DNA from: a virus
Length of the DNA stretch: 64,000 nt
Reading direction: 5' to 3' (one strand)
Virus record (IMG/VR): IMGVR_UViG_3300037993_001242
Span: 64,001 to 128,000 of that record
Shown: piece by piece, positions 383 through 57,137 of the stretch
Layout: every line of letters begins with the position of its first letter
Position numbering within the stretch: position 1 is the first letter of the stretch
Translations under genes and position numbers: made by a program
The notes under the pieces: generated by a model
Database searches by the model: none
Seen by the model: only the letters and a program-made list of their open reading frames with translations
Told to the model about the DNA's origin: nothing

Positions 383-386
383 AAAT

Positions 387-520: not shown

Positions 521-523
521 AAA

Positions 524-611: not shown

Positions 612-626
612 AAAAATCAATTACGG

Positions 627-716: not shown

Positions 717-718
717 AC

Positions 719-1072: not shown

Positions 1073-1087
1073 GTCGTAACTACAAAA

Positions 1088-1175
1088 TGGCGGAGGGTAC
1101 AGGGATTCAACCTGTGCCGGTTTTACCCGGTCGACGGTTTTCAAGACCGTAGCATTCGCGCTCTGCCAACCCTCC
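1088..1175 (-). tRNA. tRNA-Ser(UGA)
   Basis: ACGGT-CT-TGA-AA-ACCGT, long variable arm, G73-CCA; C19/G56. Confidence 0.93.
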
Positions 1176-1176
1176 G

Positions 1177-1253
1177 TGGCGTCCCCGGCAGGAGTCCAAC
1201 CTGCGACACAGTCGTTTAGGAAACGACGGCTCTTGCAACTGAGCTACGGGGAC
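1177..1253 (-). tRNA. tRNA-Arg(CCU)
   Basis: GTCGT-TT-CCT-AA-ACGAC, CCA; C19/G56. Confidence 0.93.
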
Positions 1254-1257
1254 AAAA

Positions 1258-1875: not shown

Positions 1876-1914
1876 GCCTTAAATACCGGCGATTATGACT
1901 GTATTTAGGTAGCT

Positions 1915-2373
1915 ATGATGCCTGAAAGTCGTTCGATTGCGCTTCAGCTTGCGCAGCGGTTCGTCGAATACAAGGACAGGATCGAGGAGGTTGCCGCGCA
2001 GGTGCGCCGCCACAAACGAATCCTCGATCTTTGCCCGGTGCCGATGTTTTTGACGGATGAACACGGGAAATGCGTCTACGTCAATCCCGCCAAACTCAAA
2101 CTCGTCGGGGGCACCCTTGGCGAAATGCAGTACGACGGTTGGCAGCACTTTGTTTACCCGGAAGACCTGCCCCACTTGCTGAACGCGTGGACTCAATTCG
2201 TTTTAGACCACAACCAGCACACTTTTTCGTATACGTACCGGTATCAGCGCGCTGATGGCTCGGTGCTGGAAGTTGTGACCGAAGCCAGAATGCTGGACGA
2301 CCACAGCATTGTCGGTTTTGTGCTGCCCGTGAAATGCAGCGGCTGTTTCGATTTTTTCACTGTACACGGATAA
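1915..2373 (+). CDS. Stand-alone PAS-domain protein
   Basis: PAS pattern PMFLTDEHGKCVYVNPA...WQHFVYPED...YRYQRADGS. Confidence 0.85.
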   Translation: MMPESRSIALQLAQRFVEYKDRIEEVAAQVRRHKRILDLCPVPMFLTDEHGKCVYVNPAKLKLVGGTLGEMQYDGWQHFVYPEDLPHLLNAWTQFVLDHNQHTFSYTYRYQRADGSVLEVVTEARMLDDHSIVGFVLPVKCSGCFDFFTVHG

Positions 2374-2447
2374 TGCCTTTTTCATTTGGTGTATTTACTC
2401 CACAAGGTGTTTTTCCTTGAAGTTAAAATACGCAAAATCCATATAAA

Positions 2448-2903
2448 ATGAACAACATAATCAAAGCAACAACTGTCGGTTTGATCTGCACTGCGTCGCT
2501 GCTGGTCTGTCCGCTGTCCACGAAGGCGCAGTTCGTAACCAATCTCGTCACCTTCAGCAATGTGGTCATTCGGTCATCATCAGATGTCACCGGCCCTTAC
2601 ACTAATTTGTTTACGTTGCCGGATGTTACCCTTGAGTACCGGTATCACGTGGGATCGCTTCAACCGTTTTTTTATCATTTTAAGCTGAGCACGCCGGTCA
2701 TTGATGCTGATCTGTTTGAAACCAGCTTGACGCTCCAATATGCCTTCAATGCGGGCGGCCCTTACGATGACATTTATACTTATCCAACCATTGCTGTTAC
2801 CAATCCGGCAGGAAACGCCTTTTTCCGTTCTGCTTTCGATTTGACCGACACTAATTTTGTGTTCGTTGACCCTTACACCGTTCAGTTTGTACCGCCGCCA
2901 TAA
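2448..2903 (+). CDS. Secreted protein
   Basis: Signal peptide ending TKA-Q; beta-rich mature part. Confidence 0.7.
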   Translation: MNNIIKATTVGLICTASLLVCPLSTKAQFVTNLVTFSNVVIRSSSDVTGPYTNLFTLPDVTLEYRYHVGSLQPFFYHFKLSTPVIDADLFETSLTLQYAFNAGGPYDDIYTYPTIAVTNPAGNAFFRSAFDLTDTNFVFVDPYTVQFVPPP

Positions 2904-2906
2904 AAT

Positions 2907-2983
2907 TGGCACTCCCGGCAGGATTCCAACCTGCGACCTTGAATTTAGAAAATTCCTGCTCTATGCAACTGAGCTACGGGAGC
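2907..2983 (-). tRNA. tRNA-Arg(UCU)
   Basis: Loop TT-TCT-AA, CCA; C19/G56. Confidence 0.93.
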
Positions 2984-3015
2984 AAAAACGCGCAGCCGAA
3001 TCAACGGCTGCGCGT
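2984..3015 (-). terminator. Intrinsic terminator-like hairpin
   Basis: 11-bp GC stem ACGCGCAGCCG/CGGCTGCGCGT followed by T run on minus strand. Confidence 0.6.
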
Positions 3016-3035
3016 AAAATAGGCACAGCAACGAG

Positions 3036-3923
3036 TCAAGGTGAAGCTAACCTGTAAAATTTATGTGGTACTGACGGGGAAGCAGGAATAATGACTCCTG
3101 ATGCCGAAGTCATCGTCGTCGCGTAACCATCACTATTAGTCACTGTATATCCACATGAGCCATTGGTCACGATTGGAATCCCTTGTGAATCATACACGAC
3201 GTAAACGATATTAGCCAATTTAGACGCACTATAGCCAAAATACGTACCCCAATCAGAAACTGGTTGGGATACCCAGTTGGGAATAGACGTATAGCTTACC
3301 CAACCGGTGGCCGAATAAATTTCCTGACTCCATTGTACCAAATCAGTGGTGGACTCAAGATGTGCCGTGGTCATGGGATTGCCCTGTGTATCAAGGATTC
3401 CGGCCCGTGGAACAAAATTGGTAAAAGTGGTGCTGAATGACCAAATGTAAATGTTCGTCTGCCAGTCAGTCCATCCATTGTCAATGGCGCTCCAATAGTA
3501 AACAGTAGAATTGTTGGTCGCTATCAGGGCTTGACTGCTGTTGGTCTGGCCACTATTCTCCGCTGCCGGTTGCATTATAGCCTGCTGTTTAAGCAGGGGA
3601 GGGAAAAACGGCGGCATTGGAGGGAAAAACGGCGGTGGTGGAGGCGCTGGAGTCGGGGGCGGCTGCGCCGGAGTCGGTGCCGGAGTCGCTGGCGCAGACG
3701 GAAGACAACTGTTCAACCACATTACAAGGACTACGCCGCCTGCCGTTACAATCACTATCATAATTGCACCACATATTTGCACCGTTTGGTTGGGCTGTAC
3801 GGGGTTAGCCGCAAGCTGTTTGTTGGTATTCTCAGCATACACAGGCAGTATAAGCAGGATGACCATGAGGCTGACTGCGATCAAACGACACATTATTGAT
3901 TGAGTGAATTTTGATGTTTTCAT
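3036..3923 (-). CDS. Exported/membrane protein with Pro-rich linker
   Basis: Signal peptide, TM segment, poly-Pro linker, Asn/Thr-rich domain with ESTTDLVQW. Confidence 0.75.
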   Translation of the reverse strand: MKTSKFTQSIMCRLIAVSLMVILLILPVYAENTNKQLAANPVQPNQTVQICGAIMIVIVTAGGVVLVMWLNSCLPSAPATPAPTPAQPPPTPAPPPPPFFPPMPPFFPPLLKQQAIMQPAAENSGQTNSSQALIATNNSTVYYWSAIDNGWTDWQTNIYIWSFSTTFTNFVPRAGILDTQGNPMTTAHLESTTDLVQWSQEIYSATGWVSYTSIPNWVSQPVSDWGTYFGYSASKLANIVYVVYDSQGIPIVTNGSCGYTVTNSDGYATTMTSASGVIIPASPSVPHKFYRLASP

Positions 3924-3927
3924 AGAC

Positions 3928-4173
3928 TTACTTTTTGAGCAATGCTGCGAGCGCCATCAAGAAACAGCCTGCATTCACACAGTGAAGACCAATCTGACCG
4001 ACTTTGGGTGAAACCCACGGGGAGACAAAAAACCCCACTATTAGAATGTAAGCAATCCAGCAGGCAGTAAATATGACAAGCCGATTTTGGTGCTCCTTAC
4101 ACCAATTTCCGTAAGCTTGCCATCCGCGTTGGAGCGGCGCACGCACCGACCTGATTAGTTTTTCAGGTTTCAT
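3928..4173 (-). CDS. Small two-TM membrane protein
   Basis: ATG 6 nt after a sigma70 -10 box; two hydrophobic segments. Confidence 0.7.
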   Translation of the reverse strand: MKPEKLIRSVRAPLQRGWQAYGNWCKEHQNRLVIFTACWIAYILIVGFFVSPWVSPKVGQIGLHCVNAGCFLMALAALLKK

Positions 4174-4179
4174 ACCCAA

Positions 4180-4208
4180 ACTGTATGCGTCCAACAGGCG
4201 ATTGTCAA
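4180..4208 (-). promoter_or_regulatory. Sigma70-type promoter (leaderless)
   Basis: TTGACA-N17-TACAGT-N6-ATG. Confidence 0.75.
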
Positions 4209-4266
4209 CAGGAAATTACAAGACTGTAAGCATACGGTGTAAACGATTTGTATACAATAAGTTAAA

Positions 4267-4342
4267 TGGCTCCAGAGGCTGGGCACGATCCAGCAACATC
4301 CCGGTTAACAGCCGGGTACTCTACCAATTGAGCTACTCTGGA
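4267..4342 (-). tRNA. tRNA-Asn(GUU)
   Basis: CCCGG-CT-GTT-AA-CCGGG, G73-CCA; T-loop ATCGTGC. Confidence 0.95.
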
Positions 4343-4350
4343 ATAAAAAG

Positions 4351-4444
4351 CTTTTCAGCGACGGCAGTGCCTATGCCTGCGGCCCTGTAGGGGCGGCTTT
4401 GCACACAGTAGGCTTGCCGTGTGCAATCTTTACGCCGCTGAAAA
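4351..4444 (-). ncRNA. Unassigned four-way-junction RNA
   Basis: Closing stem TTTTCAGCGGCG/CGTCGCTGAAAA plus three internal hairpins. Confidence 0.45.
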
Positions 4445-4445
4445 A

Positions 4446-4518
4446 TGGTCGCGCCGGACGGAGTTGAACACGTCATCTCGCACTTCCGGGTGCCGCTCTA
4501 ACATTAAGCTACGGCGCG
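4446..4518 (-). tRNA. Atypical tRNA, 6-nt anticodon loop CCGGAA (identity uncertain)
   Basis: Intact acceptor CGCGCCG/CGGCGCG-A-CCA and D arm; anticodon arm GCAC-CCGGAA-GTGC; bulged T stem. Confidence 0.6.
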
Positions 4519-4526
4519 TTTTAAAA

Positions 4527-4602
4527 TGGTCGGGACAACCGGGCACGATCCGGCAACCTCTCGGCCCCAAACCGAGCGCTCTACCAATTGAGCTATGCCC
4601 CG
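4527..4602 (-). tRNA. tRNA-Pro(UGG)
   Basis: CTCGG-TT-TGG-GG-CCGAG, C1-G72, A73; T-loop ATCGTGC. Confidence 0.95.
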
Positions 4603-4796
4603 TCAGCAATGTAAAAATTGTTTTCTTCTCGCGGACATTCCTCATTCAAAAGAACCAAGCATCGCCGTATGCTTACATCGGACGTTCCATAACTTTCCGT
4701 GCAATGATCGCAGCGAGAACACGTCACAATAACGCTTGGTACCGGCCCGTGATCACCGTCCAATTCTGTTTCTTCAACAGTACATTCAACACGCAT
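4593..4796 (-). CDS. Small Cys-rich hypothetical protein
   Basis: MRVECTVEE...CSRCDHC; stop codon inside tRNA-Pro. Confidence 0.6.
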   Translation of the reverse strand: MRVECTVEETELDGDHGPVPSVIVTCSRCDHCTESYGTSDVSIRRCLVLLNEECPREENNFYIADGA

Positions 4797-4814
4797 ACAG
4801 CGTAGAACTGAAAA

Positions 4815-4891
4815 TGGTCTGGGTGACAGGCTTCGATCCTGCAACCTCGTGTACCCGAAACACGCGCTCTACCAGATTGAGCTACACCCAG
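4815..4891 (-). tRNA. tRNA-Pro(CGG)
   Basis: CGTGT-TT-CGG-GT-ACACG, CCA; T-loop ATCGAAG. Confidence 0.95.
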
Positions 4892-4900
4892 TTGAAATGG

Positions 4901-5200
4901 TCAGTCAATGATGACCGGAGAATCTGAATTAAGCCATGCAAAAAGAGTTGATCCTTTGTGCTGCTGAATAAGCAAACGCGACTGATGCCCGCAGCACGAG
5001 CAGTCAAAATTGATTATTATTGCGTTTCTACGCCCCTGCATTTTTGTTTCTGGAACTGCCTCACTTTTTGGAGGATACGTACCTTGGATGGTCATCTTAA
5101 TTCCGTCGCCATCTTCAAAATGGGGTCTCTCATATATTTCGATCATGCTGTGGTGCATGTCGGCTGTTTCCCGACAGTTTGGACAAGCTAGTGCGTTCAT
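4901..5200 (-). CDS. Hypothetical Zn-binding protein
   Basis: CPNC near N-terminus and CSCC near C-terminus; fills gap between tRNAs. Confidence 0.7.
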   Translation of the reverse strand: MNALACPNCRETADMHHSMIEIYERPHFEDGDGIKMTIQGTYPPKSEAVPETKMQGRRNAIIINFDCSCCGHQSRLLIQQHKGSTLFAWLNSDSPVIID

Positions 5201-5220
5201 ACGCCCACAAGAACGTAAAA

Positions 5221-5297
5221 TGGTCGGGATGACGGGCTTCGATCCCGTGACCTCCAGTCCCCCAGACTGGCGCGCTACCTGACTGCGCTACATCCCG
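5221..5297 (-). tRNA. tRNA-Pro(GGG)
   Basis: CCAGT-CT-GGG-GG-ACTGG, CCA; T-loop ATCGAAG. Confidence 0.95.
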
Positions 5298-5298
5298 G

Positions 5299-5586
5299 TT
5301 AAGATTTGGTTGGTATGGCATCAGCCAGCCGCGCCAAAACATCACCATGACAGGGCATCGGCCAGCACCAGCAACCCAACGTTTTGTCCTTCAATTCGTG
5401 CAGGCTGGCCAACAACTCTGGCTGAGTTTTAATCCAGTCTTCATACATGGCGATGACTTCGTCGCGGGTGCCGTCGGCTCCGATCCGGTAGGGGTTGCCC
5501 CACTTTGAACCTTCTGGAAAATCACGCGTACCTCGTCCGATGTATACATCGAATTTACTGTGCTTGCAATGGACAACTTTAGTCAT
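5299..5586 (-). CDS. DUF4326-family protein
   Basis: VVHCK...FDVYIGRG...SKWGNPY...LGCWCWPMPCHGDVL. Confidence 0.85.
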   Translation of the reverse strand: MTKVVHCKHSKFDVYIGRGTRDFPEGSKWGNPYRIGADGTRDEVIAMYEDWIKTQPELLASLHELKDKTLGCWCWPMPCHGDVLARLADAIPTKS

Positions 5587-5607
5587 ACTCCACAAGAACC
5601 AAAAGTT

Positions 5608-5688
5608 CCCCAAGCGGCAGGAGCACCGCCCGCCCGCGTTACTTCGTCACTGCCTGACTAACAGACCGTTGCGATGCTCAGCTTGGGT
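5608..5688 (-). ncRNA. Unassigned structured RNA, possible pseudoknot
   Basis: CCCAAGC/GCTTGGG and GAGCATCGC/GCGGTGCTC stems; bulge CTGCC complementary to internal GGCAG. Confidence 0.45.
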
Positions 5689-5692
5689 AAAT

Positions 5693-5758
5693 TGGCGGCC
5701 CTCGATATTACGGCGGCTGCGCCGCCACAAGAAGTGGCCACTTCTTGTATCTCAGGCC
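5693..5758 (-). ncRNA. Non-canonical three-way-junction RNA ending G-CCA
   Basis: GGCCT-GA-GATA/TATC-GA-GGGCC-G-CCA with two perfect hairpins. Confidence 0.55.
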
Positions 5759-5761
5759 AAA

Positions 5762-5839
5762 TGGCGGGACGTACGGGCTTCGATCCCGTGACCTTCCGGT
5801 AGACAGCCGGTTGCTCTAGCCAGACTGAGCTAACGTCCC
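5762..5839 (-). tRNA. tRNA-Asp(GUC)
   Basis: Loop CT-GTC-TA, G73-CCA; T-loop ATCGAAG. Confidence 0.93.
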
Positions 5840-5844
5840 AAAAA

Positions 5845-6150
5845 TTATGATCCGACGAGTTCGTCAGTGCCTTCCCACGTAAACTCCGAAACCGGCAGGT
5901 GCATTCCACACTGACAACAGTAGGTCGCACCGTAAAATTTTGGGTCGCGAGCGTAAGTTTCAGCGATGGCCAAGGCCATGGTCGTTTTCGCCCGGCAGGT
6001 ATTGTGGATGTACGACTGACGTACCGGTCGAATGAATCCTTTGGCGCGCTCCTCTTCGGACAGCACGAGGTATTTTTTCATCTGCGGTGTCGGCACTTTG
6101 TCCGCACCGTATCCTAAATCGGGGTCTTTTGGATCAGTTGTCAAACTCAT
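5845..6150 (-). CDS. Hypothetical phage protein (MSLTTDP...TYCCQC)
   Basis: True start after GTAGTTA-N5; the longer ORF-track call runs through tRNA-Tyr. Confidence 0.75.
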   Translation of the reverse strand: MSLTTDPKDPDLGYGADKVPTPQMKKYLVLSEEERAKGFIRPVRQSYIHNTCRAKTTMALAIAETYARDPKFYGATYCCQCGMHLPVSEFTWEGTDELVGS

Positions 6151-6164
6151 ACCTTTAACTACGT

Positions 6165-6226
6165 TGGCGGGCTTGGCTGTTAATTCAGCCCGTAGCGCGC
6201 CACGCGGCGGATCAGGCCGCAAGCCC
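6165..6226 (-). ncRNA. 62-nt mini-cloverleaf RNA lacking an anticodon loop, ending G-CCA
   Basis: GGGCTT/AAGCCC-G-CCA plus three hairpins; middle loop is the tetraloop CGCG. Confidence 0.6.
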
Positions 6227-6231
6227 ATAAA

Positions 6232-6322
6232 TGGTGGCAACGGCTGGAGTCGAACCAGCGGTGTTTTCCTCTTGGGTAGCGCTTTTACAGAGCGTTGTCT
6301 TCGCCACTTGACGCACGTTGCC
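6232..6322 (-). tRNA. tRNA-Tyr(GUA)
   Basis: Loop CT-GTA-AA, long variable arm, A73-CCA; canonical T-loop. Confidence 0.95.
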
Positions 6323-6333
6323 GTATTTAAAAC

Positions 6334-6846
6334 ATGAAAATCATTTACGCTATGGTTGTGGCTCTTGTCCTGACTGGCTGTGCAACTCAGCGGGGATTCC
6401 CGCCGAATAACGGCATCGGCAACTTTGACCGCTTGGACGACAAAGTCTATCGCGGCGCACAACCCTCGCACGAAGCCATTGCCAAACTGGCAAAAGCTGG
6501 CGTGACCAGAGTAATCAATCTCCGCCTGCCCGGCGATACGGCACCGTACGAAAAATCGGCGTGTCGGGCCGAAGGCATCGAATACTTCAACGTACCCATT
6601 GGTGGTTTTTCCGCTCCCACTGATGCCCAAGTACACCGGGTATTTTCTTTGATTGAGACCGCCCATGGGCCGGTCTACATCCATTGCCAGTGGGGCTGTG
6701 ACCGCACCGGAACCATGTGCGCCTGCTGGCGAATCCATCACGATGGCTGGAGCAATGCACAGGCACTACAGGAAGCCGTCATTTACGGCCTGTCACCTTG
6801 GGAACAGAGCATGAGGTACTACATCCTGCATTACCACGAAAAATAA
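6334..6846 (+). CDS. Lipoprotein Cys-based (dual-specificity/tyrosine) phosphatase
   Basis: Lipobox LVLTGC; CX5R loop HCQWGCDRTG. Confidence 0.85.
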   Translation: MKIIYAMVVALVLTGCATQRGFPPNNGIGNFDRLDDKVYRGAQPSHEAIAKLAKAGVTRVINLRLPGDTAPYEKSACRAEGIEYFNVPIGGFSAPTDAQVHRVFSLIETAHGPVYIHCQWGCDRTGTMCACWRIHHDGWSNAQALQEAVIYGLSPWEQSMRYYILHYHEK

Positions 6847-6932
6847 CGGGCAAGGTTTTGGCATCGGGTATGCTGGGTTTCCCCGGCGGTTTGTATCAAT
6901 AACAAGATAACCGACAGTCCATTCGGCCCGTA
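6843..6932 (-). ncRNA. Y RNA (short form, no tRNA module)
   Basis: Same terminal stem as 387-520 (ACGGGC(C)GAA...GGTTATCT...CCTTGCCCGT). Confidence 0.8.
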
Positions 6933-6935
6933 AAA

Positions 6936-7011
<76 letters not shown>

Positions 7012-7016
7012 AAAAG

Positions 7017-7457
7017 TTATTCTTCATCTGCTGATTCCCAGTTGTTGCAGCAACCGCCCCAAAAAATCGGGCCGGTTACTTCTTTGCAGGAGCCTTCGTC
7101 CTTGCCGCCGGAATAATACTCGCAGTTGCCACAATGTGTCGGCCCATCCTCGATGTATCCGACGGCTTCTTTGGGCAGCAACTCCAGTGGCGTCGCACCT
7201 TCTTTCAGGAAAGTTTTGCCCCCGATGAAGGCTGCGCACACGCCATGTTCACCATCACAAGCTGGCGGCGTTGTGACGAAGCACTCACTCTTGGGCGTGT
7301 TAAAGAATATGCACTTGCCACAACGCGCACCGGGATCGGTTTGACCGGATTTGTTGAGCATGTCCGGGGTCATGTATACAACCTGTGCTTGGAGCATTTT
7401 GCCATCTTCGGCTTCATGCTCTTGCAGTCCCATCACCCGGCGCAAAATCGGATTCAT
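7017..7457 (-). CDS. Tandem HiPIP-like (4-Cys) protein
   Basis: Two CxxC...C...C units; second is CGNCEYY...C...GGCCNNW; GTATTTA-N4-ATG. Confidence 0.6.
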   Translation of the reverse strand: MNPILRRVMGLQEHEAEDGKMLQAQVVYMTPDMLNKSGQTDPGARCGKCIFFNTPKSECFVTTPPACDGEHGVCAAFIGGKTFLKEGATPLELLPKEAVGYIEDGPTHCGNCEYYSGGKDEGSCKEVTGPIFWGGCCNNWESADEE

Positions 7458-7474
7458 GCCCTAAATACCGGTCT

Positions 7475-7514
7475 GAAAATAGAAGGCCGGGGGGCTTCCA
7501 CGCTCCCCGGCCTA
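7475..7514 (-). terminator. Intrinsic terminator
   Basis: AGGCCGGGG/CCCCGGCCT stem followed by TCTATTTT. Confidence 0.65.
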
Positions 7515-7520
7515 AGTTTT

Positions 7521-7730
7521 ATACCAAGGCGTTTTTGAACTTTGATCGCCAACAGCCTGCTGTCCTTAGCTTAATCCCGGCGCTTTACCGCTGAGCTACA
7601 CCGCCATAGTTTTATGGGGGCGGTGACTGGATTTGAACCAGCGACTCCGGTTTGTTAGACAACACCTGTCAGGTCACGTCTTGCTATTGTGTAACGCACT
7701 AGGTGCGCTACGGTTGAGCCTTCGGGTGAT
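7521..7730 (-). ncRNA. Long Y RNA (YrlA-like) with permuted tRNA module
   Basis: ACC(C)GA/TTGGT bulged helix; T arm-CACCGCC-C-CCA, 9-nt linker, GGCGGTG, D arm; long extended stem. Confidence 0.72.
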
Positions 7731-7818
7731 AGCCTGACATTGAACTTTAATTTTAACCATCACCTTGAGCTTGGGCGAGCGGCCCGTAAAATCAATTTAC
7801 AGGCCGCCGCACCCGAAA

Positions 7819-8031
7819 TTATGGTTTGCCCTCCAGTTGTTTCAGCCGTTCTTTATAGATTTTTTCAATCTCGCTTTCCCTTATACCCCGAAGATTGCGG
7901 CCACCGGCATTCATACACGTCGCGTGCTCTTGCGTATTCGTGGTCAGCCTCTGCGCTTTTTCCATTTCAGCACGCCGCCACACGTCCAGTCTGCGTTTTG
8001 CGCTTTCGTCCATAAGACTATTTGTTGCCAC
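7819..8031 (-). CDS. Small charged hypothetical protein
   Basis: Overlaps the stop region of the upstream gene. Confidence 0.45.
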   Translation of the reverse strand: MATNSLMDESAKRRLDVWRRAEMEKAQRLTTNTQEHATCMNAGGRNLRGIRESEIEKIYKERLKQLEGKP

Positions 8032-8782
8032 TGAACACGAAGCTCAGCAACTGCTTGCCGATCTTCTTGGTCAGGTCGACTTCTTCGTCGTTGGCCCGTG
8101 AGCGCGCCCGGCGGACGGCTCGCGTCAGGATTTCGATCCGGTCGAGCAGTTCGGCTTTTTCCGCCGGGGTGATCAACGAAGACCACTCCTTTTCCTCAAC
8201 CTTGCCTACCGGCACATCGATGGCCAGCAACTGAGTCTGAGCCGGATGTTCCTTGGTGGCGTCGTACAGCACAATCGGCTTGGACTGTTTCTGCGTGCGA
8301 ATCTTGATCACTTCGCGTGCTTTGTAAACACCAGCGCCGCGCTGCGCATCCGCCACGAAACCCTTGGCCGGATCGAGCGTCGGGATGACCGCGATCAACT
8401 GCTGGATTTCCGTGCAGCGCTTTTCAAGCTCCAGCAGCGCCGTCGCCGGGACATCCTTAATTAGCACGGTACCCGCGTCGTCATCAAGCACGATGTCGGC
8501 CTTCGCCCGTGTATTGGCGTCAGCCACCTGATACGAGGCGTCGAGTGCCTTGGTCAGATGACCCTGAATCCATGTCAGTTCCTTGCCGACCGAGGTCTGC
8601 AAGAAGGACTGGGCTTCGGTCTGCGGCTCGGCTTTTTCCGCGTCGGGTTTGAAGACGACGTGCTTTTCCTCGAAAAGATGCCGCTTCTTTTCAAAGGTGT
8701 TGGCCTGATCGGTGCGGCACTTTTCGGCCTGCTGTTTCAGGCTGGTTTCAACTGCCAAAAGTTCATGTAGTTTGGTTGACAT
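8018..8782 (-). CDS. Conserved-looking large-phage hypothetical protein
   Basis: 254-aa helical ORF behind a sigma70 promoter. Confidence 0.8.
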   Translation of the reverse strand: MSTKLHELLAVETSLKQQAEKCRTDQANTFEKKRHLFEEKHVVFKPDAEKAEPQTEAQSFLQTSVGKELTWIQGHLTKALDASYQVADANTRAKADIVLDDDAGTVLIKDVPATALLELEKRCTEIQQLIAVIPTLDPAKGFVADAQRGAGVYKAREVIKIRTQKQSKPIVLYDATKEHPAQTQLLAIDVPVGKVEEKEWSSLITPAEKAELLDRIEILTRAVRRARSRANDEEVDLTKKIGKQLLSFVFSGNK

Positions 8783-8791
8783 AGTGGTTGG

Positions 8792-8819
8792 AGTGTATAC
8801 GCGTTAGATTTCTTGTCAA
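8792..8819 (-). promoter_or_regulatory. Sigma70-type promoter
   Basis: TTGACA-N16-TACACT. Confidence 0.7.
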
Positions 8820-8829
8820 CTTAAAATTT

Positions 8830-8905
8830 TGGTGGAGCCGAGGGGGTACGATCCCCTGACCTCCTGAATGCCATTCAGGCGCTCTGCCAACTGAGCTACG
8901 ACCCC
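8830..8905 (-). tRNA. tRNA-Ala(GGC)
   Basis: G3-U70, loop AT-GGC-AT, CCA; T-loop ATCGTAC. Confidence 0.95.
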
Positions 8906-8909
8906 AAAA

Positions 8910-9180
8910 GGGTGCTGCTGCCCGTTTTTCGCAGGCGTCGCCTTCCCGTTCACGGCTGGTTAGGTCTCAATTCTCCAGACGCTTATGGACTTGGCGCAAT
9001 AGTTGGCATCACGCACACGCCGCCCAAGACCGGGGCGTGCTCCGCGCTTAGTACACCAACCCGCAGCATAAATTAAAGAGCCGGGCCGAGTTTGCGACAG
9101 CGATTGCAACCGCCGCGCCTGATCGTGTGGCCTCTGCGTCCACCTTCCGGTGCGCAACCGGAATACTCCCCGGATACCGT
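8910..9180 (-). ncRNA. Unassigned structured RNA region (probably two units)
   Basis: Nested helices, e.g. TTCCGGT/ACCGGAA, GTTGGTGT/ATGCCAAC, GCACGCC/GGCGTGT; no credible ORF. Confidence 0.4.
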
Positions 9181-9184
9181 CGTC

Positions 9185-9259
9185 TGGTGGAGCCGATGGG
9201 GATTCAACCCACGACCTCCCGCGTGCGAGGCGGGCGCTCTGGCGCTGAGCTACGACCCC
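9185..9259 (-). tRNA. tRNA-Ala(CGC)
   Basis: G3-U70, CCCGC-CT-CGC-AC-GCGGG; C19/G56. Confidence 0.93.
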
Positions 9260-9266
9260 AAATGAA

Positions 9267-9553
9267 TTCCCCAGATGTCAGGAATCACCCAACATAGTCG
9301 CAAACGTGAGTCTTTATGAGTATTCGGCCATTTGGCTCCATCGGTAGCACTCCGACTTCGATACCAAAGCAGGGCTTTACCTGCAATACGGGTTGGTTTG
9401 ATTGGCACTTCCCGTAAACGACGTTAGCTGACCGAGCTACCTAATCAGCCTTAGCCACATTACGTTTGCCATGCTCTTCCCACGCTACGAGACGATTCCA
9501 AGCTTACGGAACCTGCCTTTGCCCCCACCAAAGAGGCTTCAGCCACTGGAGAA
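9267..9553 (-). ncRNA. Unassigned ~290-nt multi-helix RNA
   Basis: Terminal helix TTCTCCAG/CTGGGGAA, long-range GCAAACGT/ACGTTTGC, at least 5 local hairpins. Confidence 0.55.
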
Positions 9554-9555
9554 AT

Positions 9556-9631
9556 TGGTGGAATCGACCGGGAACGATCCGGCAACTTTCGGCTTGCAAA
9601 ACCGACGCTCTACCGATTGAGCTACGACCCC
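9556..9631 (-). tRNA. tRNA-Ala(UGC)
   Basis: G3-U70, loop TT-TGC-AA, CCA; T-loop ATCGTTC. Confidence 0.95.
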
Positions 9632-10071
9632 TTTGAAATTGATGCGCGATACGCTTTGAGTTTGACCCGCCGGTCATCGTCAAACGGAATTTCACCGCCC
9701 AAATGGACGCCTTCGTAAATGGCCTCCCGGAGCAGCAGTTCAACGTTCAGCGATTCCATGGCTTCGAGCAGCAGGTTGTCGCTTTGGTCTCTGGTCAACG
9801 TCGCCAACGTCCACGTACCGTCGCTGTTCAAAACTTGCAGGACGTTGCGGTAAGCGCCGTCGTGCAGGACGGTTCCCATCCAATAGGTGCCGAAAGGCGG
9901 AATGAGATTCCAGATCGCTTTGGGCGTGCTGGCCCCATCCGACGGGGAACCGGTCGGCATCATGTATTGGACGCCGTTTTTGGCCACGTACACGAGGTCT
10001 TCCAGCAGAACGATATGCCTGCCGTCACTGGTTTCGTTGGCAATCGTCGGCTTTTTGAATCCATATTCCAT
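9622..10071 (-). CDS. DUF1353-family protein
   Basis: SDGASTPKAIW...TVLHDGAY motif; GTAGTTA-N4-ATG. Confidence 0.85.
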   Translation of the reverse strand: MEYGFKKPTIANETSDGRHIVLLEDLVYVAKNGVQYMMPTGSPSDGASTPKAIWNLIPPFGTYWMGTVLHDGAYRNVLQVLNSDGTWTLATLTRDQSDNLLLEAMESLNVELLLREAIYEGVHLGGEIPFDDDRRVKLKAYRASISKGS

Positions 10072-10091
10072 GCCCTAACTACGCAACAAAA

Positions 10092-10165
10092 TGGAGCGAG
10101 TGAACGGTGTCGATCCGTCGTATCAGCCTTGGCAAGGCCGCGCTCTACCGTTGAGCTACACCCGC
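10092..10165 (-). tRNA. tRNA-Gly(GCC)
   Basis: CGGCC-TT-GCC-AA-GGCTG, U73-CCA; T-loop ATCGACA. Confidence 0.95.
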
Positions 10166-10231
10166 GTCACGCCGCGACATAACCGCGCTAAATCACGTTT
10201 CTAACACGTGCCAATCATGCAGCGGCAAAAA

Positions 10232-10307
10232 TGGCTGCCCGAAGTGGGGACGATCCACTACTCTTCTGATCCAGAGTCAGACGTGTTACCAGTTACACCA
10301 TCGGGCA
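10232..10307 (-). tRNA. tRNA-Gln(CUG)
   Basis: U1-A72, TCTGA-CT-CTG-GA-TCAGA, G73; T-loop ATCGTCC. Confidence 0.95.
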
Positions 10308-47559: not shown

Positions 47560-47633
47560 TGGCGCTTCCGACGGGGATCGAACCCGCGTGCTCCGTTTTA
47601 GAGACGAATGCCTTGCCACTAGGCTACGGAAGC
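47560..47633 (-). tRNA. Amber suppressor tRNA (anticodon CUA)
   Basis: 74-nt cloverleaf, TTCGT-CT-CTA-AA-ACGGA, G73-CCA, canonical T-loop. Confidence 0.9.
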
Positions 47634-47696: not shown

Positions 47697-48326
47697 ATGA
47701 GCATCATTACCGCTGCCGCCCAATTAGCTGCGCGCTACCACAAAGAACAGACGCGCAAAAACAATGGCCGTCCTTACATCACGCATCTCATTCGCGTGGC
47801 GGGACGGGTGGCCACCCTTCCCGGAACGGAAGACGCTGACGTGGCTGGAAGTTTTCTCCACGACATACTGGAAGATATTCCCAAAACCCTCGATGTCTTC
47901 CACCAGATGCAGTTTGAAATTTTGGAAACGTGCGGGCAGGAAACCCTCGATATTGTGGTCGCCCTGACCAATCCCAGCAAGGGCATGAAACTGCCCCGTC
48001 CCGAACGCAAGCAGATTGACCGCGATCATCTGGCCAAATGCCCCCGGCGGGTCAAGCGGATCAAGCTGGTCGACCGGATCGACAACGTTGAAGAGTCCAT
48101 TGTTGACTTGTCGCTGGGTCTCGACAAAAGCACCAAATTCAACGAAATATACGCGAACGAATCCGAACAACTTTTGACTGAAGCCCTGTGCGGTGCAGAC
48201 GTGGAATTGGAAACGGAATTGGCGCGCAGCATCCAAAATTTGCGCTTCGTCTGTTCCCGCATCAAGCTGGGCCAATCAATTGCCGAATTCCGCGACGCGC
48301 TTCGAGGAAAAATCCTTAGTAGTTAA
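47697..48326 (+). CDS. HD-domain (p)ppGpp hydrolase-like protein (Mesh1/SpoT-HD)
   Basis: HKEQTRK..GRPYITHLIRVA, LHDILED, IKLVDRIDN. Confidence 0.88.
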   Translation: MSIITAAAQLAARYHKEQTRKNNGRPYITHLIRVAGRVATLPGTEDADVAGSFLHDILEDIPKTLDVFHQMQFEILETCGQETLDIVVALTNPSKGMKLPRPERKQIDRDHLAKCPRRVKRIKLVDRIDNVEESIVDLSLGLDKSTKFNEIYANESEQLLTEALCGADVELETELARSIQNLRFVCSRIKLGQSIAEFRDALRGKILSS

Positions 48327-48772: not shown

Positions 48773-49201
48773 TCACGCAGGCTGCGGTTCCAAAGCAACA
48801 GCGTACTCACGGCGGGGAATTGCCCGGATACCGTAGGTGCGGAATATGTTGGCAAAATTGACCGAAGAAAGCGGCTTGGACAGGAAACCCACCACTCCCA
48901 GATTCGCGCCATCCATACAGCCGGTGGCCTCAGCGCGCTCGGCAACCACGATGACCGGCAATGTGGGCTTTTCTTCCTTGATGTAGCGCAAAACTTCGAT
49001 GCCGCTTTTTATTGGCAGTGACAGATCGAGAAAAACAACGTCGTAGGGCTTTTCCCCAACAAAATCAATGGCGCGCTCGCCGTCGATGACCCAGTCAATG
49101 TCGCATTCGTACTGATCACGAATGTTGACTAAAAAAAGATTGCCGACCGTGTAGTCATCCTCCGCCAAAAGAATACGCGGTGGCCGCAACAATTTTGACA
49201 T
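48773..49201 (-). CDS. Stand-alone CheY-like response-regulator receiver
   Basis: ILLAEDD, VVFLDL, SGIEVL, FLSKP. Confidence 0.9.
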   Translation of the reverse strand: MSKLLRPPRILLAEDDYTVGNLFLVNIRDQYECDIDWVIDGERAIDFVGEKPYDVVFLDLSLPIKSGIEVLRYIKEEKPTLPVIVVAERAEATGCMDGANLGVVGFLSKPLSSVNFANIFRTYGIRAIPRREYAVALEPQPA

Positions 49202-49563
49202 TAAGGCTTCAACAAGTGCCATAAAGCATCAAATACCATTTTGAGTAACGCGGATAAAACAACCAGACCAAGGGCGGCAACCACTGCCCATTTGCCCGAA
49301 ATCAACTGCTTCCAGTCCGATAACGTAGCTATGGTCTTGCTGGTCTCAGTTATGCGCCGGTCGCAATCCAGCACGTCTTTGTTGACCTTGAGCAGCGCGC
49401 TGACCAACCAGTTGTTCTGGTTTTCCAACCTGCTCATTGTCTCCACTAAATACCGCTCGCTCTCCGAAAGCTTACACAGCAAATGGGGCGGTATCGTGCT
49501 TTTGAATTCTTTAAGCTCAAGTAGCTCATAGGCCCGTGGCGCGCTCGGTTGCTCATTGCTCAT
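49201..49563 (-). CDS. Coiled-coil protein with C-terminal TM helix
   Basis: 120 aa; WAVVAALGLVVLSAL. Confidence 0.65.
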   Translation of the reverse strand: MSNEQPSAPRAYELLELKEFKSTIPPHLLCKLSESERYLVETMSRLENQNNWLVSALLKVNKDVLDCDRRITETSKTIATLSDWKQLISGKWAVVAALGLVVLSALLKMVFDALWHLLKP

Positions 49564-49648: not shown

Positions 49649-50080
49649 ATGGATGACATCACAAAATTTGTAACCGAAAGCAACCGTATTGAAGGCATAC
49701 GGCGGCGGCCAACACGGGCCGAACTGGAGGAATTCCAAAGATTTTTGGCTCTGGAGGAGGTCACCGTCGAGGAGTTGGAGCACTTCGTAAGGGTTTATCA
49801 GCCCGGCGCAAGACTTCGCGACCAATTCGGTCTTGATGTCCGTGTGGGCCGCCATCTGCCACCGCGAGGCGGCCCGGAGATACGCAATCATCTGCTTGAT
49901 CTGCTGCTTAATGACGACCTGAGTGCTTACGAGCAGCACGTTGCTTACGAAGTCCTGCATCCCTTCACCGACGGCAACGGACGTTCAGGCCGAGCACTCT
50001 GGGCGTGGCGCGTGAGAGATTTTCCTTTGGGCTTTCTTCACACGTTTTATTACCAGACACTGGACTCGTCGCGTCATTGA
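49649..50080 (+). CDS. Fic-domain protein
   Basis: Canonical HPFTDGNGRSGR; ESNRIEG. Confidence 0.93.
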   Translation: MDDITKFVTESNRIEGIRRRPTRAELEEFQRFLALEEVTVEELEHFVRVYQPGARLRDQFGLDVRVGRHLPPRGGPEIRNHLLDLLLNDDLSAYEQHVAYEVLHPFTDGNGRSGRALWAWRVRDFPLGFLHTFYYQTLDSSRH

Positions 50081-50125: not shown

Positions 50126-50722
50126 ATGCTCCTGACCGGAATCAAAGAAATTGAACGCCGAATAAAGTGGCCTGTCGCCCGCTGGAATGGCAATTGCTAC
50201 GCCGTCGCCGTGGCTATTTTCAAGGCCAAGCTGGTTCCTGCCAAATCCCATGTCCGTTACGGCGTCTGGCACGGGCCGATTGCTTCCACCAGTTCCTTCG
50301 CCGGAAGACCTTTTACCCATCATGGATGGATTGAACTGCCCGATAACCAAATTTACGATCCGACGCGCTTTGTTTTTGAAGCTCAACGACCCTACATCTG
50401 GATTGGCACCGATGAAAAGGGCTACTATGATGTTGCCGGTCAGCGGTTGAACAAAATCTTTTATCGTGAATGCCCGGCTGCCGAAGAAAAACCTGTCAAG
50501 CTGACCGACCGACAACGCCAAGTCCTCGGACAGTTCCTCCCCTCCATCTGCAAACGTGATCCTGATTTTGGTCAGTTGATGTGGTTGGGAAACATGCCGC
50601 CGGATGAAATGAACGGCCAAGCCAAAGCTGTATACATTGTCCTTGAGGAATTAAATTTACAGGCATTGATCCCACTGGATTTCCGAAGATATGTTCTGGA
50701 AGACGACAAAGTTTACGCATGA
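50126..50722 (+). CDS. Hypothetical protein
   Basis: GNCY...HHGWI..IYDPT motif. Confidence 0.7.
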   Translation: MLLTGIKEIERRIKWPVARWNGNCYAVAVAIFKAKLVPAKSHVRYGVWHGPIASTSSFAGRPFTHHGWIELPDNQIYDPTRFVFEAQRPYIWIGTDEKGYYDVAGQRLNKIFYRECPAAEEKPVKLTDRQRQVLGQFLPSICKRDPDFGQLMWLGNMPPDEMNGQAKAVYIVLEELNLQALIPLDFRRYVLEDDKVYA

Positions 50723-51837
50723 CCGGTAGAACTTTAACCCAAGCCTTTCGCGTCCTGAACAAGGCGATATGCCCGGAAGATGTCTTCGGCCCACTCGACG
50801 ATGATCCCCCGGCGTCACTTAAAACGGAGTACCGGGAATGGGCCAAATTGACGCATAGCGACAGATATACTGGCACAGCCGACAAGAAAAAAGCGCAGGA
50901 TGCTTTCGTGTTGCTCCAGAAGTGGCACAAGCTCGCCGAACAAAAAGTCAAGGACGGCAAGTACGGCGACCGCAGCGCCATAACCGAGATAACGGTCAAA
51001 ACCAAAACCGGTGTCTACACGGTTACTGAGCGGGTCGCGTCCGGTGATCTATGCGAAATCTACGGTGGCACGAATCAAGCTAAAGAACGCGTCGTGCTCA
51101 AAGTCACCCGTACACCGGCCAATAACGACCTGATCGCCAATGAAAGTGCCCAGCTTCGCTATCTGTGGGACAACCCCAAACGGGCGAAATTGAAGTTGAT
51201 GCAGCACATTCCCCAACTGCTGGACGCTTTCGAGTTGAAGCAGGACAAGATCACCAAGCGGGTCAACGTTTTTCGCAGACTCGACGGGTACTTCACAATG
51301 CAGGACGTGCTGGACGAATACCCGGAAGGTCTTGATCCGCATGACGCCGCGTGGATGTGGAACCGGCAGTTAAGTTCGCTGGTCATCACCCATGAGGCCG
51401 GTATCGTACACGGTGCCGTGTTGCCCCGGAATTTCATGCTCTGCCCAACCGACCCCGTGCCCCACGACGGCATCTTGATCGACTGGGCATATTCGGTCAA
51501 AACCGGCGGCCAATTCAGAGCCATCTGCCCGGACGAAAAGGTCAACTATCCGCCGGAAATCTTTGTCAAAAAACCCGCCAGCCCCGCCACCGACATCTAC
51601 ATGTCAGCGGTCTGCATGATCCGGCTGCTCGGTGGGCAAATGACCAAGAGCGGAGCGGAGTTGCCGCCCACGGTACCACGTCCGATCAAAGGTTTGCTGC
51701 GCTCGTGCTTGCTGTCTGTGGCGCATCGGCCCAAGGACGTGTTCGAGGTCTTCCGCGACTTTGAACAGATTTTGAAACAACTTTATGGCCCGCGAAAATT
51801 TCGTCCGTTCTCAATGCCACGAGCAACAATTAAATAA
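50719..51837 (+). CDS. J-domain-like plus Ser/Thr kinase-fold protein (atypical catalytic loop)
   Basis: YREWAKLTHSD; VVLK; IVHGAVLPRN; IDWAYS. Confidence 0.75.
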   Translation: MTGRTLTQAFRVLNKAICPEDVFGPLDDDPPASLKTEYREWAKLTHSDRYTGTADKKKAQDAFVLLQKWHKLAEQKVKDGKYGDRSAITEITVKTKTGVYTVTERVASGDLCEIYGGTNQAKERVVLKVTRTPANNDLIANESAQLRYLWDNPKRAKLKLMQHIPQLLDAFELKQDKITKRVNVFRRLDGYFTMQDVLDEYPEGLDPHDAAWMWNRQLSSLVITHEAGIVHGAVLPRNFMLCPTDPVPHDGILIDWAYSVKTGGQFRAICPDEKVNYPPEIFVKKPASPATDIYMSAVCMIRLLGGQMTKSGAELPPTVPRPIKGLLRSCLLSVAHRPKDVFEVFRDFEQILKQLYGPRKFRPFSMPRATIK

Positions 51838-51840: not shown

Positions 51841-52080
51841 ATGGAAAAAACAATCCAAGAGCGTGTTCAAACGATTTTAATCGACCAACTGGGCGTTAAG
51901 CCAGAACAAGTGACACCAGAAGCCGATCTCGTCAAAGACTTGGGCGCAGATGAACTGGACATCATTGAAGTGGCCATGGCCGTCGAAGAGGCGTTCAGCC
52001 TCGAACTGCCCGACCAAGACCTTGAGAAAATCAAGACCGTCGGCGACATGGTTCAGTACATCCAAAAGCGACTTGCATAA
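51841..52080 (+). CDS. Acyl carrier protein-like, attachment Ser replaced by Glu
   Basis: [32 protein letters not shown]. Confidence 0.9.
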
Positions 52081-52084: not shown

Positions 52085-52261
52085 ATGGGAAAACCTGACG
52101 ATACTGAAATTGAAACTGTCGAGGAGCACCGCCATGACTGCGGTTGTGACTGCGGCTTTGATGACGAACCAACAACCGCCAGAAGCTGGGTCATATATGC
52201 TGTTGCCACCATCGGCGTGCTGATCTGTCTCGGCATCCTCTGGTACCTCCACAACCACTGA
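52085..52261 (+). CDS. Small membrane protein
   Basis: HDCGCDCG then TM helix. Confidence 0.55.
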   Translation: MGKPDDTEIETVEEHRHDCGCDCGFDDEPTTARSWVIYAVATIGVLICLGILWYLHNH

Positions 52262-52266: not shown

Positions 52267-52743
52267 ATGGGAAAACAAGACGAAACTGACGAGGCCGATG
52301 TGCCCAACACCACCACACCACCTGAACCGGCGGAACTTGCTTACAGTGCATACTGCACCATCCGCAACTGGAAAGCCGTCAACGGCGATCCGCTTCCGCT
52401 TTGGGCCGATGTCACGGAAGACATCAAAGAAGGCTGGCGCGCCGCTGTTAAAGCTGTCCTGCCTGCGAAAGAAACCGTCGTAGATAAAGGCGAGACCCTG
52501 CGACTGGCAACCAATCCAGCAGATGTGGAATTGCCCTTGCTCACCGAGGATCAGATCAACACCATGGATTTGGAGGAAGCTTGCTCCCAACTTGGCAACC
52601 GTGTATACAAGGTCTGCCTGCTGTACGAGCAACTTGAACACCGGGGCGTCGTTCGGGGCAACGGACATCACGCGGCACAGCATATTGCGAAGCTGGCTGA
52701 AACAGAGTTACGCGAACGCTGGATTACCAAACCGGCGGCATAA
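52267..52743 (+). CDS. Hypothetical protein
   Basis: 158 aa in operon. Confidence 0.65.
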   Translation: MGKQDETDEADVPNTTTPPEPAELAYSAYCTIRNWKAVNGDPLPLWADVTEDIKEGWRAAVKAVLPAKETVVDKGETLRLATNPADVELPLLTEDQINTMDLEEACSQLGNRVYKVCLLYEQLEHRGVVRGNGHHAAQHIAKLAETELRERWITKPAA

Positions 52744-52786: not shown

Positions 52787-53251
52787 ATGGGCTATAGAGA
52801 CTACAGTCACGAAACATACACCGCCCGTATGCGGGAGCATACGGAAAAAGGAACCGATCCGTTTACGCACAGTGCGGAAATCCGCTCTGGCCACACGGAG
52901 ATGAAGGTTCACGAAAAACTCGATCCGTCCAAGAAAAACAAGGCGGGCCGGAACATCCGGGAAAGCTTTGACAGCGACACCCATCCCGAAAGTCACCCTG
53001 TTGCCGTCATCTTCGACGTAACCGGTTCCATGGCGAGCGTTCCCCGCATCTTCGTGGAAAAACTCGGCACCCTCATGGCGACGCTGGTCAAGAAGGACTT
53101 CCTCCAGCATCCGCACATCCTGTTCGGTGCGGTCGGCGACGCCACCGTCTGGATCGACGCCGAAACCCACCTGCGCTCGCACGGCGATCAGATTTTTGAT
53201 CTCACAAAAGTTCGAGCCTTTTTGACTGCCGCCCGGCCCTTCATAAAATAG
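52787..53251 (+). pseudogene. Truncated vWA-domain gene
   Basis: MIDAS-type DVTGSM and GAVGDA, then abrupt unrelated tail. Confidence 0.55.
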
Positions 53252-55454: not shown

Positions 55455-57137
55455 ATGCTTGCTGTATACACTTATTTTGATGCAAACGGCATTCAGCGTA
55501 ACGCTGAATCTAACGCATTTAATTTTGTCGGCACGTGGACACGGTCAGGAACTTATTCGTCCACTACACTGGACACGGTCAATTACAGCAACGGCCAGTT
55601 TACTTGCATCATAAACAACTATGGCAGCATTCCCGCAAATTCCTCAGCGTGGTCACCCCTCGTTTTGCGTATACCTGCATCCGGCACCGGCGTTGATGAA
55701 GCTTTAATCGTAGCTGAAGCAGCCTACTCTATTGCCGTTATAGGCACCAATGCTGCCGCACAGGCTCAACTCACTGCCAACACTGCCTTTTCGATTGCAG
55801 TTATTGGAACAAACACAGGGTCTAGTGCCTATGCACTGGCGGCAACCGCCGATGCTGTTGCACAGGAAGCGCTCAGCATCGCCATCATCGGGACTAACAT
55901 TGGAACCACAGCGTATAGCATAGCTACAACGGGAAGTAATGCAGTGTATCAAGGCTACACACTGTCCGGCATTGTAATTGCCACGGGAAGTAACTTTGCT
56001 AGTTTGGGTTTTACTCCACCGCCAAACACGCGGTTGATCAACACTGCTGCGCCTTTGGATGGCGGCGGTGATCTGAGTGCCGACCGGACAATCTCCATCA
56101 CTCAGTCCGGCACCAATACCGATGGTTATCTGTCCAGCACCGACTGGATTACATTCGAGACCGCTTCAACCAACGCTTCCGCTGCCCTTTTGGCTGCTGG
56201 AGCCGCCAGCGCCATTGCATCAACCGGCACTAACACAGCAAACGAAGCACTCAGTATTGCCATCATCGGTACCGATGTTGGAACCAATGCGTATACGTTA
56301 GCTACAACGGGAAGTAATACAGCTTGGGAAGCTCTTAGTATTGCTATCATAGGAACAAATGCTGCTGCTGCTGCTGTCCAGCCAGCACGCAACATCAACA
56401 CTAATACACCCTTGTCGGGTGGTGGCGATTTGAGCGCTGATCGCACACTTTCCATAACTCAATCCGGTTCCAACACCAGCGGTTATCTCTCGAACACCGA
56501 CTGGGGCACTTTCAATGCCAAAGTTACAACGACCCGCGCCATCAACACTAATGCACCTTTAACCGGCGGCGGAGATTTGTCCGCTGACCGGACGTTGTCA
56601 ATCACTCAATCGGGCAGCAATACCGACGGCTATCTATCCAGCACCGACTGGGGCACTTTCAATGCCAAACAAAACTCATTGGGCAATCTCAACGGAATCA
56701 TCAAAGGCAACGGCAGCAACACTTATACCGTGGCCACTTCGGGCACCGATTACGCTCCGGGATATTCTGGAGTTCCCGTTGGTGGCATCATCGCATGGGC
56801 AAAATCGCTAACCAACACGCCCGCACTGCCCATAGGCTACGTGGAATGCAATGGACAAACTTTAAGCGACGCAAACAGCGTCTATAACGGAATTGTCATT
56901 CCCAATCTGAACGGCTCCACGGACGCCACCAAGCGTTTCCTGCGCGGAGCCACAACTTCCGGCGGCACGGGTGGATCAGCCACACACACGCATAGTGTAG
57001 GCTCTGCTACCGATAACCATTTTATAACCAGTGCCTCTCCCATAGCCACTGCCGTAACCAGTATCTCTGTGTCCACCGGTTCAGCTTCCACGATACCAAC
57101 ATACTACGAAGTAGTCTATGTCATGCGCGTAAAATGA
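55455..57137 (+). CDS. Tail fibre-like protein with internal repeats and collar-like C-domain
   Basis: Three INT.(A/T)PL.GGGDLSADRT..ITQSG.NT.GYLS.TDW.TF repeats; VPVGGIIAW...VECNGQ...PNL. Confidence 0.75.
   Translation: MLAVYTYFDANGIQRNAESNAFNFVGTWTRSGTYSSTTLDTVNYSNGQFTCIINNYGSIPANSSAWSPLVLRIPASGTGVDEALIVAEAAYSIAVIGTNAAAQAQLTANTAFSIAVIGTNTGSSAYALAATADAVAQEALSIAIIGTNIGTTAYSIATTGSNAVYQGYTLSGIVIATGSNFASLGFTPPPNTRLINTAAPLDGGGDLSADRTISITQSGTNTDGYLSSTDWITFETASTNASAALLAAGAASAIASTGTNTANEALSIAIIGTDVGTNAYTLATTGSNTAWEALSIAIIGTNAAAAAVQPARNINTNTPLSGGGDLSADRTLSITQSGSNTSGYLSNTDWGTFNAKVTTTRAINTNAPLTGGGDLSADRTLSITQSGSNTDGYLSSTDWGTFNAKQNSLGNLNGIIKGNGSNTYTVATSGTDYAPGYSGVPVGGIIAWAKSLTNTPALPIGYVECNGQTLSDANSVYNGIVIPNLNGSTDATKRFLRGATTSGGTGGSATHTHSVGSATDNHFITSASPIATAVTSISVSTGSASTIPTYYEVVYVMRVK

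Follow-up and report, generated by a model that had tools for sequence, protein, structure and literature searches.

A phage homologue of acyl carrier protein with glutamate in place of the phosphopantetheine-bearing serine

It was found that a phage encodes a homologue of the bacterial acyl carrier protein (ACP) in which glutamate takes the place of the serine residue that receives 4'-phosphopantetheine. The gene lies in a stretch of 64,000 nucleotides (hereafter, the window), which corresponds to bases 64001-128000 of the 199,098-bp IMG/VR virus record IMGVR_UViG_3300037993_001242. The record is linear and 82% complete according to CheckV. The retained fold, charge, and helix II acids of the protein, together with the inhibition reported for apo-ACP, make an unreactive look-alike the most economical model. 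The preferred reading is that the window ACP is a carrier-dead mimic of ACP which exerts its effect through protein binding, for which I estimate a probability of about 45%. I infer that the gene is expressed, that its product binds host ACP partners, and which partners these may be.

The window ACP gene extends from ATG to TAA (51841..52080, + strand) and encodes 79 amino acid residues (P0001). The codons GAC TTG GGC GCA GAT GAA CTG GAC are translated into DLGADELD. The protein matches PF00550 (54.2 bits, E = 1.8e-14; cut-off 20.8), the AcpP equivalog TIGR00517 (89.8 bits; cut-off 70.45), and NF002148 (99.5 bits; cut-off 71). Its identity to solved ACPs is about 50-55%, with an E-value of 3.5e-24 for 2ehs. 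In the alignments to these ACPs, Glu38 (codon GAA at 51952..51954, + strand) faces the serine of the D-S-L motif, which is Ser36 in Escherichia coli ACP. The same column is serine in 20 of the 20 close Ser-type relatives used as outgroups. The translation, the alignments, and the family scores agree with the original prediction, which had described a near-canonical AcpP sequence with Glu at the phosphopantetheine site. The window protein is an AcpP homologue without the defining functional feature of the family.

Phosphopantetheinyl transferases require the hydroxyl group of serine. The S36T variant of E. coli ACP is unmodifiable and non-functional (PMC3340395). Since Glu38 occupies the serine column, the window ACP is not a functional carrier; on chemical grounds, it cannot carry phosphopantetheine or an acyl chain, and the earlier description of the protein as non-loadable is borne out. 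Neither a phosphopantetheinyl transferase nor a second carrier protein was found in the 199-kb record, and no fatty-acid-synthesis genes were found near the ACP gene. Because the cut-off of the AcpP equivalog is passed, annotation pipelines will label the gene 'acyl carrier protein' and treat it as an auxiliary lipid-metabolism gene, while its product cannot carry anything.

An AF2 model of the window ACP, built on 35 sequences, has a pLDDT of 93.6 and four helices (residues 5-17, 38-52, 58-61, and 67-78). Helix II, which is the partner-docking helix, was assigned by DSSP on this model (51952..51996, + strand), and Glu38 is its first residue. The best Foldseek match of the model is 2ehs (TM 0.91, rmsd 0.7 Å), and the matches to solved ACPs range from 0.86 to 0.96 in TM and from 0.6 to 1.1 Å in rmsd, indicating the same four-helix bundle. 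The acids of helix II are docking residues for AcpS and fatty-acid-synthesis enzymes. In the window ACP, D37, D40, E43, E49, and E50 are retained, corresponding to D35, D38, E41, E47, and E48 of E. coli ACP. Of these, D35, E41, and E47/E48 are AcpS contact residues needed for the action of AcpS (bioRxiv 10.1101/2025.01.28.635281). The net charge of the window ACP is -10, compared with -12 for the ACP of a sister phage described below, and its pI is about 4.2.

Is the glutamate codon real? The exact window ACP protein is encoded on 16 contigs in ENA, JGI, and Logan assemblies. The gene is nucleotide-identical in the ten contigs read, which come from different samples, and the whole-length alignments of the ten Glu-bearing contigs to the window show 99.8-100% identity. 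The Glu-bearing copies are one near-clonal phage population. A sequencing or assembly error, which had been named as a possible refutation, was rejected because the ten contigs agree and because the codon differs by two bases from that of the sister phage. IMG/VR protein queries with the ACP and with the neighbouring kinase gave no close relatives.

The closest other protein is the ACP of the sister phage (P0002), which is 71% identical to the window ACP and has DLGADSLD. The contigs of the sister phage (86-100 kb) are syntenic with the window, with the common order of a 515-aa membrane protein, an HD_4 hydrolase, a receiver domain, Fic, a 198-aa protein, a kinase, the ACP, a 58-aa protein, and a 158/164-aa protein. 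Serine is likewise present in the ACPs that come next in similarity (61% and 55% identity), one of which is encoded on a phage-like contig. The sister codon at the Glu38 position is TCA (Ser), which differs from GAA by two substitutions; the genetic code requires that the change from TCA to GAA proceeded via GCA (Ala) or TAA (stop). Since the nearest orthologue has DSL, the glutamate of the window lineage is a recent change without evolutionary depth. The sister is also the sole diverged relative within the lineage. The original prediction looked to homologues for conservation of the Ser-to-Glu change. This did not stand for the nearest orthologue, while Glu or Asp recurs at the site in many other phages, as described below, and this recurrence argues against a meaningless lone mutation. 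The two phages differ at the attachment site in a syntenic background of about 90% identity and thus form a natural matched pair.

The ACP has changed faster than its surroundings. Most neighbours are 83-96% identical to their sister orthologues, compared with 71% for the ACP. The dN of the ACP gene (0.203, Nei-Gojobori) is the highest of 20 syntenic gene pairs, whose median is about 0.05, and its dS (0.72) is inside the range of the neighbours (0.09-1.47). Recombination of a foreign allele was considered as the cause of the low identity and rejected, since dS is ordinary and the synonymous changes are spread over the gene. A dS of this size speaks for an increased rate of protein evolution at the locus itself, against a swapped-in distant allele. 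The pairwise dN/dS of 0.28 is also the highest of the 20 and well below 1, as an average over both branches and the time before the change that says nothing on constraint after the loss of serine. When the 23 differences between the window and sister ACPs were polarised with the 20 Ser-type outgroups, 12 were assigned to the Glu lineage and four to the Ser lineage, with seven being ambiguous. The Glu-lineage changes at normally conserved sites are K8Q, E13D, S36E, V40I, L42V, E49A, E57Q, and A59L in E. coli numbering. The asymmetry of 12 versus four is not significant (Tajima chi-square 1.7-3.8), and the end branches estimated by likelihood are modestly asymmetric (0.14 versus about 0.10). The TIGR00517 score of the window ACP is 17 bits below that of the sister ACP.

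It may be, although I consider it rather unlikely, that a working or dispensable carrier has recently lost its serine and is drifting to decay, with no stop codon or frameshift as yet. A gene in this state would fit the serine of the sister and the occurrence of the Glu form in one near-clonal population only. The top-ranking dN and dN/dS and the decreased TIGR00517 score point the same way, as do the accessory nature of the gene, which is absent from two related phage contigs (L017 and L019), and the loss or truncation of other accessory genes nearby (a purA-like gene has been lost, and a 336-aa gene has been shortened). However, the ORF is intact and its branch-averaged dN/dS is 0.28 rather than about 1. 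The derived changes in the protein core are conservative (V to I, L to V, and I to L), the fold is predicted with high pLDDT, and the docking acids are kept. A drifting gene also does not readily explain a glutamate that needs two substitutions, nor why Glu and Asp dominate the look-alikes of other phages while the one-step replacements Ala and Thr are rare.

The ACP gene sits in a small accessory cassette. Its left border is a J-domain/protein-kinase-like gene (372 aa, 50719..51837, + strand; phrog_3043 'kinase', E = 4.5e-37), the stop codon of which lies 3 nt before the ACP start codon. Homologues of this gene carry PF00226 and PF00069, and the window copy is 92.7% identical to the sister copy. 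The ACP gene is followed, after 4 nt, by the gene of p58 (58 aa, 52085..52261, + strand), a Cys/His-rich membrane protein whose N-terminus is acidic, which contains the motif HRHDCGCDCG, and which has a hydrophobic segment at its C-terminal end. The right border is the gene of p158 (158 aa, 52267..52743, + strand), which has no assigned function. p58 was found only in the window phage and its sister, and no other homologue was found among 5.8 billion clusters. In L017 and L019, a p158 homologue (59% and 51% identity, respectively) directly follows the kinase gene, and both the ACP and p58 genes are absent. The kinases of the more distant relatives are 84% and 65% identical to that of the window. 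From the position of the p158 homologue directly after the kinase in these relatives, it follows that the ACP and p58 genes are a cassette that was acquired jointly before the window phage and its sister diverged.

This gene arrangement raises another explanation, in which the window ACP would be an adaptor or subunit that stabilises or regulates the phage's own proteins, namely p58 or the J-domain kinase, and not a decoy for the host. The joint acquisition and the 4-nt spacing make p58 the first candidate partner. Mitochondrial ACP is a structural subunit for LYR proteins. ACPs also serve as structural subunits in the solved structures of complex I, Nfs1-Isd11, and MukBEF, which are among the structure matches of the window ACP, and a Plasmodium ACP does so without the serine. 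I nevertheless regard this explanation as quite unlikely: p58 is an orphan, no homologue of p58 or the kinase was found near other Glu/Asp-type ACP loci, and the kinase is present without the ACP in related phages.

Other features of the region were noted. Just upstream of the ACP gene, there is a signalling-type gene cluster, which is conserved in related phages without the ACP. It includes an HD_4 hydrolase (47697-48326, + strand) from the family of RelA/SpoT-type hydrolase domains, a stand-alone response-regulator receiver (48773-49222, - strand), a Fic/DOC-family protein (49649-50080, + strand), and the J-domain/protein-kinase-like protein (50719-51837, + strand) that borders the cassette. 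A lone tRNA gene with the anticodon CUA (47560-47633, - strand; an amber suppressor, 'Pyl' in ARAGORN) lies between two genes near the HD_4 gene. Reassignment of the amber codon was rejected: TAG ends 25 of the 166 long ORFs, and reading TAG as a sense codon leaves the largest ORFs no longer. The window has many phage-type ORFs, and its left end is occupied by an array of 20 tRNA genes (142-10307, - strand).

Downstream of the cassette, the window keeps at 52787-53251 (+ strand) the equivalent of about the first 120 residues of a 336-aa gene of the sister. The next genes of the sister, an adenylosuccinate-synthetase-like gene (purA-like, 431 aa) and a 69-aa gene, are missing from the window. 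Compared with this region of the sister (L001 10940-13499), the window has a deletion in an accessory region right after the ACP cassette. Further downstream, a 560-aa protein rich in Ala/Thr/Gly/Ser repeats (55455-57137, + strand) is probably a tail fibre. About 150 residues of this protein match a 156-aa gene of the sister with 50% identity, and the locus is strongly different between the two phages.

Ser-less ACP look-alikes are found in other phages. The motif D[LF]GADx[LF]D was back-translated and used to scan IMG/VR, and the matches were then checked for ACP-likeness. With Glu at position x, 25 of the 60 matches were ACP-like, and with Asp, 19 of the 52. By contrast, only three of the 50 Ala matches and two of the 17 Thr matches were ACP-like, and thus the emphasis that had been put on negative charge gained support. 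For Ser, scanned with TCN codons only, there were at least 120 matches, with 114 ACP-like proteins among the matches listed. The 44 acidic-site sequences form 10 clusters at 65% identity, three of which mix Glu and Asp. Furthermore, the protein annotated 'acyl carrier protein' in the cultured Serratia phage phiMAM1 of the Ackermannviridae (MAM_092) has DDLWFDELD, with Glu at the site. Since a Ser codon becomes an Ala or Thr codon by a single substitution and a change to Glu takes two or more, the predominance of acidic residues suggests that an acidic side chain is selected for after the serine has been lost.

To ask how often this conversion has taken place, a tree was built from 92 cluster representatives. 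It requires 13 changes of the acidic label but is poorly resolved, so that 13 is not usable as a count of independent origins; the well-supported branches force only three. The window ACP groups with the Ser-bearing sister with 97% support, and thus its conversion is separate from the others. When the window locus was compared with other Glu/Asp-type loci, no shared neighbour was found except the antisense ORF of the ACP gene. In a search for convergence beyond the acidic site, the residues corresponding to E. coli E49, A59, and Y71 showed weak trends, none of them decisive. Another Glu-type ACP, which lies on a 199,078-bp contig (L077), was considered as belonging to a relative of the window phage and rejected.

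The acidic excess may be read in more than one way. Glu and Asp could be favoured merely because they stabilise the N-terminus of the helix, and not because they imitate phosphate. The preference for Glu/Asp over Ala/Thr thus sets charge mimicry against helix capping as a testable hypothesis. It is highly improbable that Glu38 is itself a chemistry site, through esterification, ADP-ribosylation, or metal binding, and that the protein is another kind of carrier or sensor. Nothing but the conservation of an acidic side chain here in other phage families speaks for such a site; the genes adjoining the ACP gene include no evident modifying enzyme, and a role of charge explains the free interchange of Glu and Asp within families better than a specific covalent reaction does.

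A full-database search was also performed with the Glu-bearing query, and its list of Glu-site proteins, which is biased by the query's own Glu, includes a small ACP-like protein of 80 aa (P0011). In a bacterial MAG, a Glu-site ACP-like domain is part of a coiled-coil fusion (P0115). Two-domain proteins with one Glu site and one Ser site were seen in either order, the Glu domain being first in P0033 (L324 5001-5486) and second in P0130. P0028, P0034, P0040, and P0104 are proteins of 335-425 aa with a lipoprotein-type signal and two or three ACP-like domains, many of which carry Glu at the attachment site (DELD, DESE, and DEVD). If exported, these putative lipoproteins could hardly be phosphopantetheinylated.

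A different kind of serine loss was seen in P0006-P0025, which are stand-alone proteins of 78-106 aa from MAGs of Verrucomicrobiota, Proteobacteria, and other groups. They resemble circularly permuted ACPs, starting with MGLDTVEL... (helices II-IV) and ending with ...FVKDLGAD (helix I and the loop). The termini fall exactly at the attachment site, and the serine is absent. One of these ORFs (L325 3001-3264, + strand) stands alone, with a GTG start codon and a TAG stop codon.

In a literature search of limited scope, no paper on Ser-less phage ACPs was found. ACP modules of phages appear as annotations only in a survey of jumbo phages (PMC13573597). The Ser-less, acidic-site ACPs of phages are a recurrent but unstudied set, to which the window ACP belongs by virtue of Glu38 and its viral record.

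The carrier-dead mimic may have arisen and may act as follows. The ancestor shared by the window phage and its sister would have gained a loadable AcpP-type gene along with the gene of the 58-aa membrane protein. The attachment serine would then have been replaced by glutamate in the lineage of the window. During infection, the product may serve as an unreactive stand-in for host ACP and occupy the ACP-docking sites of host proteins. Candidates are those of AcpS and of lipid-synthesis enzymes such as glycerol-3-phosphate acyltransferase. The carboxylate at the N-terminus of helix II might partly replace the charge of the phosphodiester. According to a review citing Keating et al. 1995, both the glycerol-3-phosphate acyltransferase and the growth of E. 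coli are inhibited more strongly by apo-ACP than by holo-ACP (PMC3896788).

SpoT, which the original prediction had placed among the targets, turned out to be a poor candidate. According to the same review, apo-ACP is not bound by SpoT (PMC3896788), and mutations of L42 and V43 in E. coli ACP break SpoT binding (PMC3340395). The equivalents of both residues have been altered in the Glu lineage. For these two reasons, SpoT is a weak candidate for the target of the window ACP.

The mimic reading is favoured by the intact ORF, the dN/dS of 0.28 averaged over both branches, the kept docking acids, the recurrence of Glu and Asp, and the lack of carrier machinery in the record. The glutamate without evolutionary depth, the regional gene loss relative to the sister, and the lack of a conserved neighbour at the Glu/Asp-type loci count against it. 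A wider version of the idea is doubtful, namely that Glu/Asp-site look-alikes are widespread and have repeatedly arisen as imitations of host holo-ACP that block or hijack an ACP-dependent host process. Their targets would be, for example, lipid synthesis, AcpS, or an ACP-dependent defence or toxin, and the window phage and its sister would capture a Ser-to-Glu conversion in progress. Should Ser-less ACPs prove to be mimics, they would represent a novel type of protein for host takeover or counter-defence by phages, directed at ACP, a protein whose connections in the bacterial cell are among the most numerous.

The closest known system is bacterial AcpP (PF00550 and TIGR00517; Aquifex 2ehs and E. 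coli 1l0h), especially its apo form. The window ACP has the same length, the same four-helix fold (TM 0.9), the DLGAD-x-LD motif, and the acidic helix II. Unlike AcpP, it has Glu in place of Ser and can never become holo- or acyl-ACP, and it is encoded by a phage without a transferase or nearby fatty-acid-synthesis genes. With the look-alikes of phiMAM1 and IMG/VR, it shares a small, acidic, and standalone protein from a large phage, the Glu/Asp site, and the D-x-LD and helix II E...E features. In contrast, it is only about 35-45% identical to them and has no common gene neighbourhood with them. Other look-alike families keep the acidic residue across diverged members, whereas the nearest orthologue of the window ACP has Ser. 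Another parallel is the mitochondrial ACP (mACP) of Plasmodium falciparum, in which the attachment serine has been changed to Phe and the docking glutamates of helix II are kept, as in the window ACP. This mACP binds Isd11-Nfs1 without the prosthetic group (bioRxiv 10.1101/2021.04.13.439690 / PMC8547962). The mACP is eukaryotic and organellar and has a LYR-motif partner, while the window ACP is from a phage. The serine of mACP is replaced by Phe, a hydrophobic residue packed into the partner, whereas the replacing residue of the window ACP is a charged Glu.
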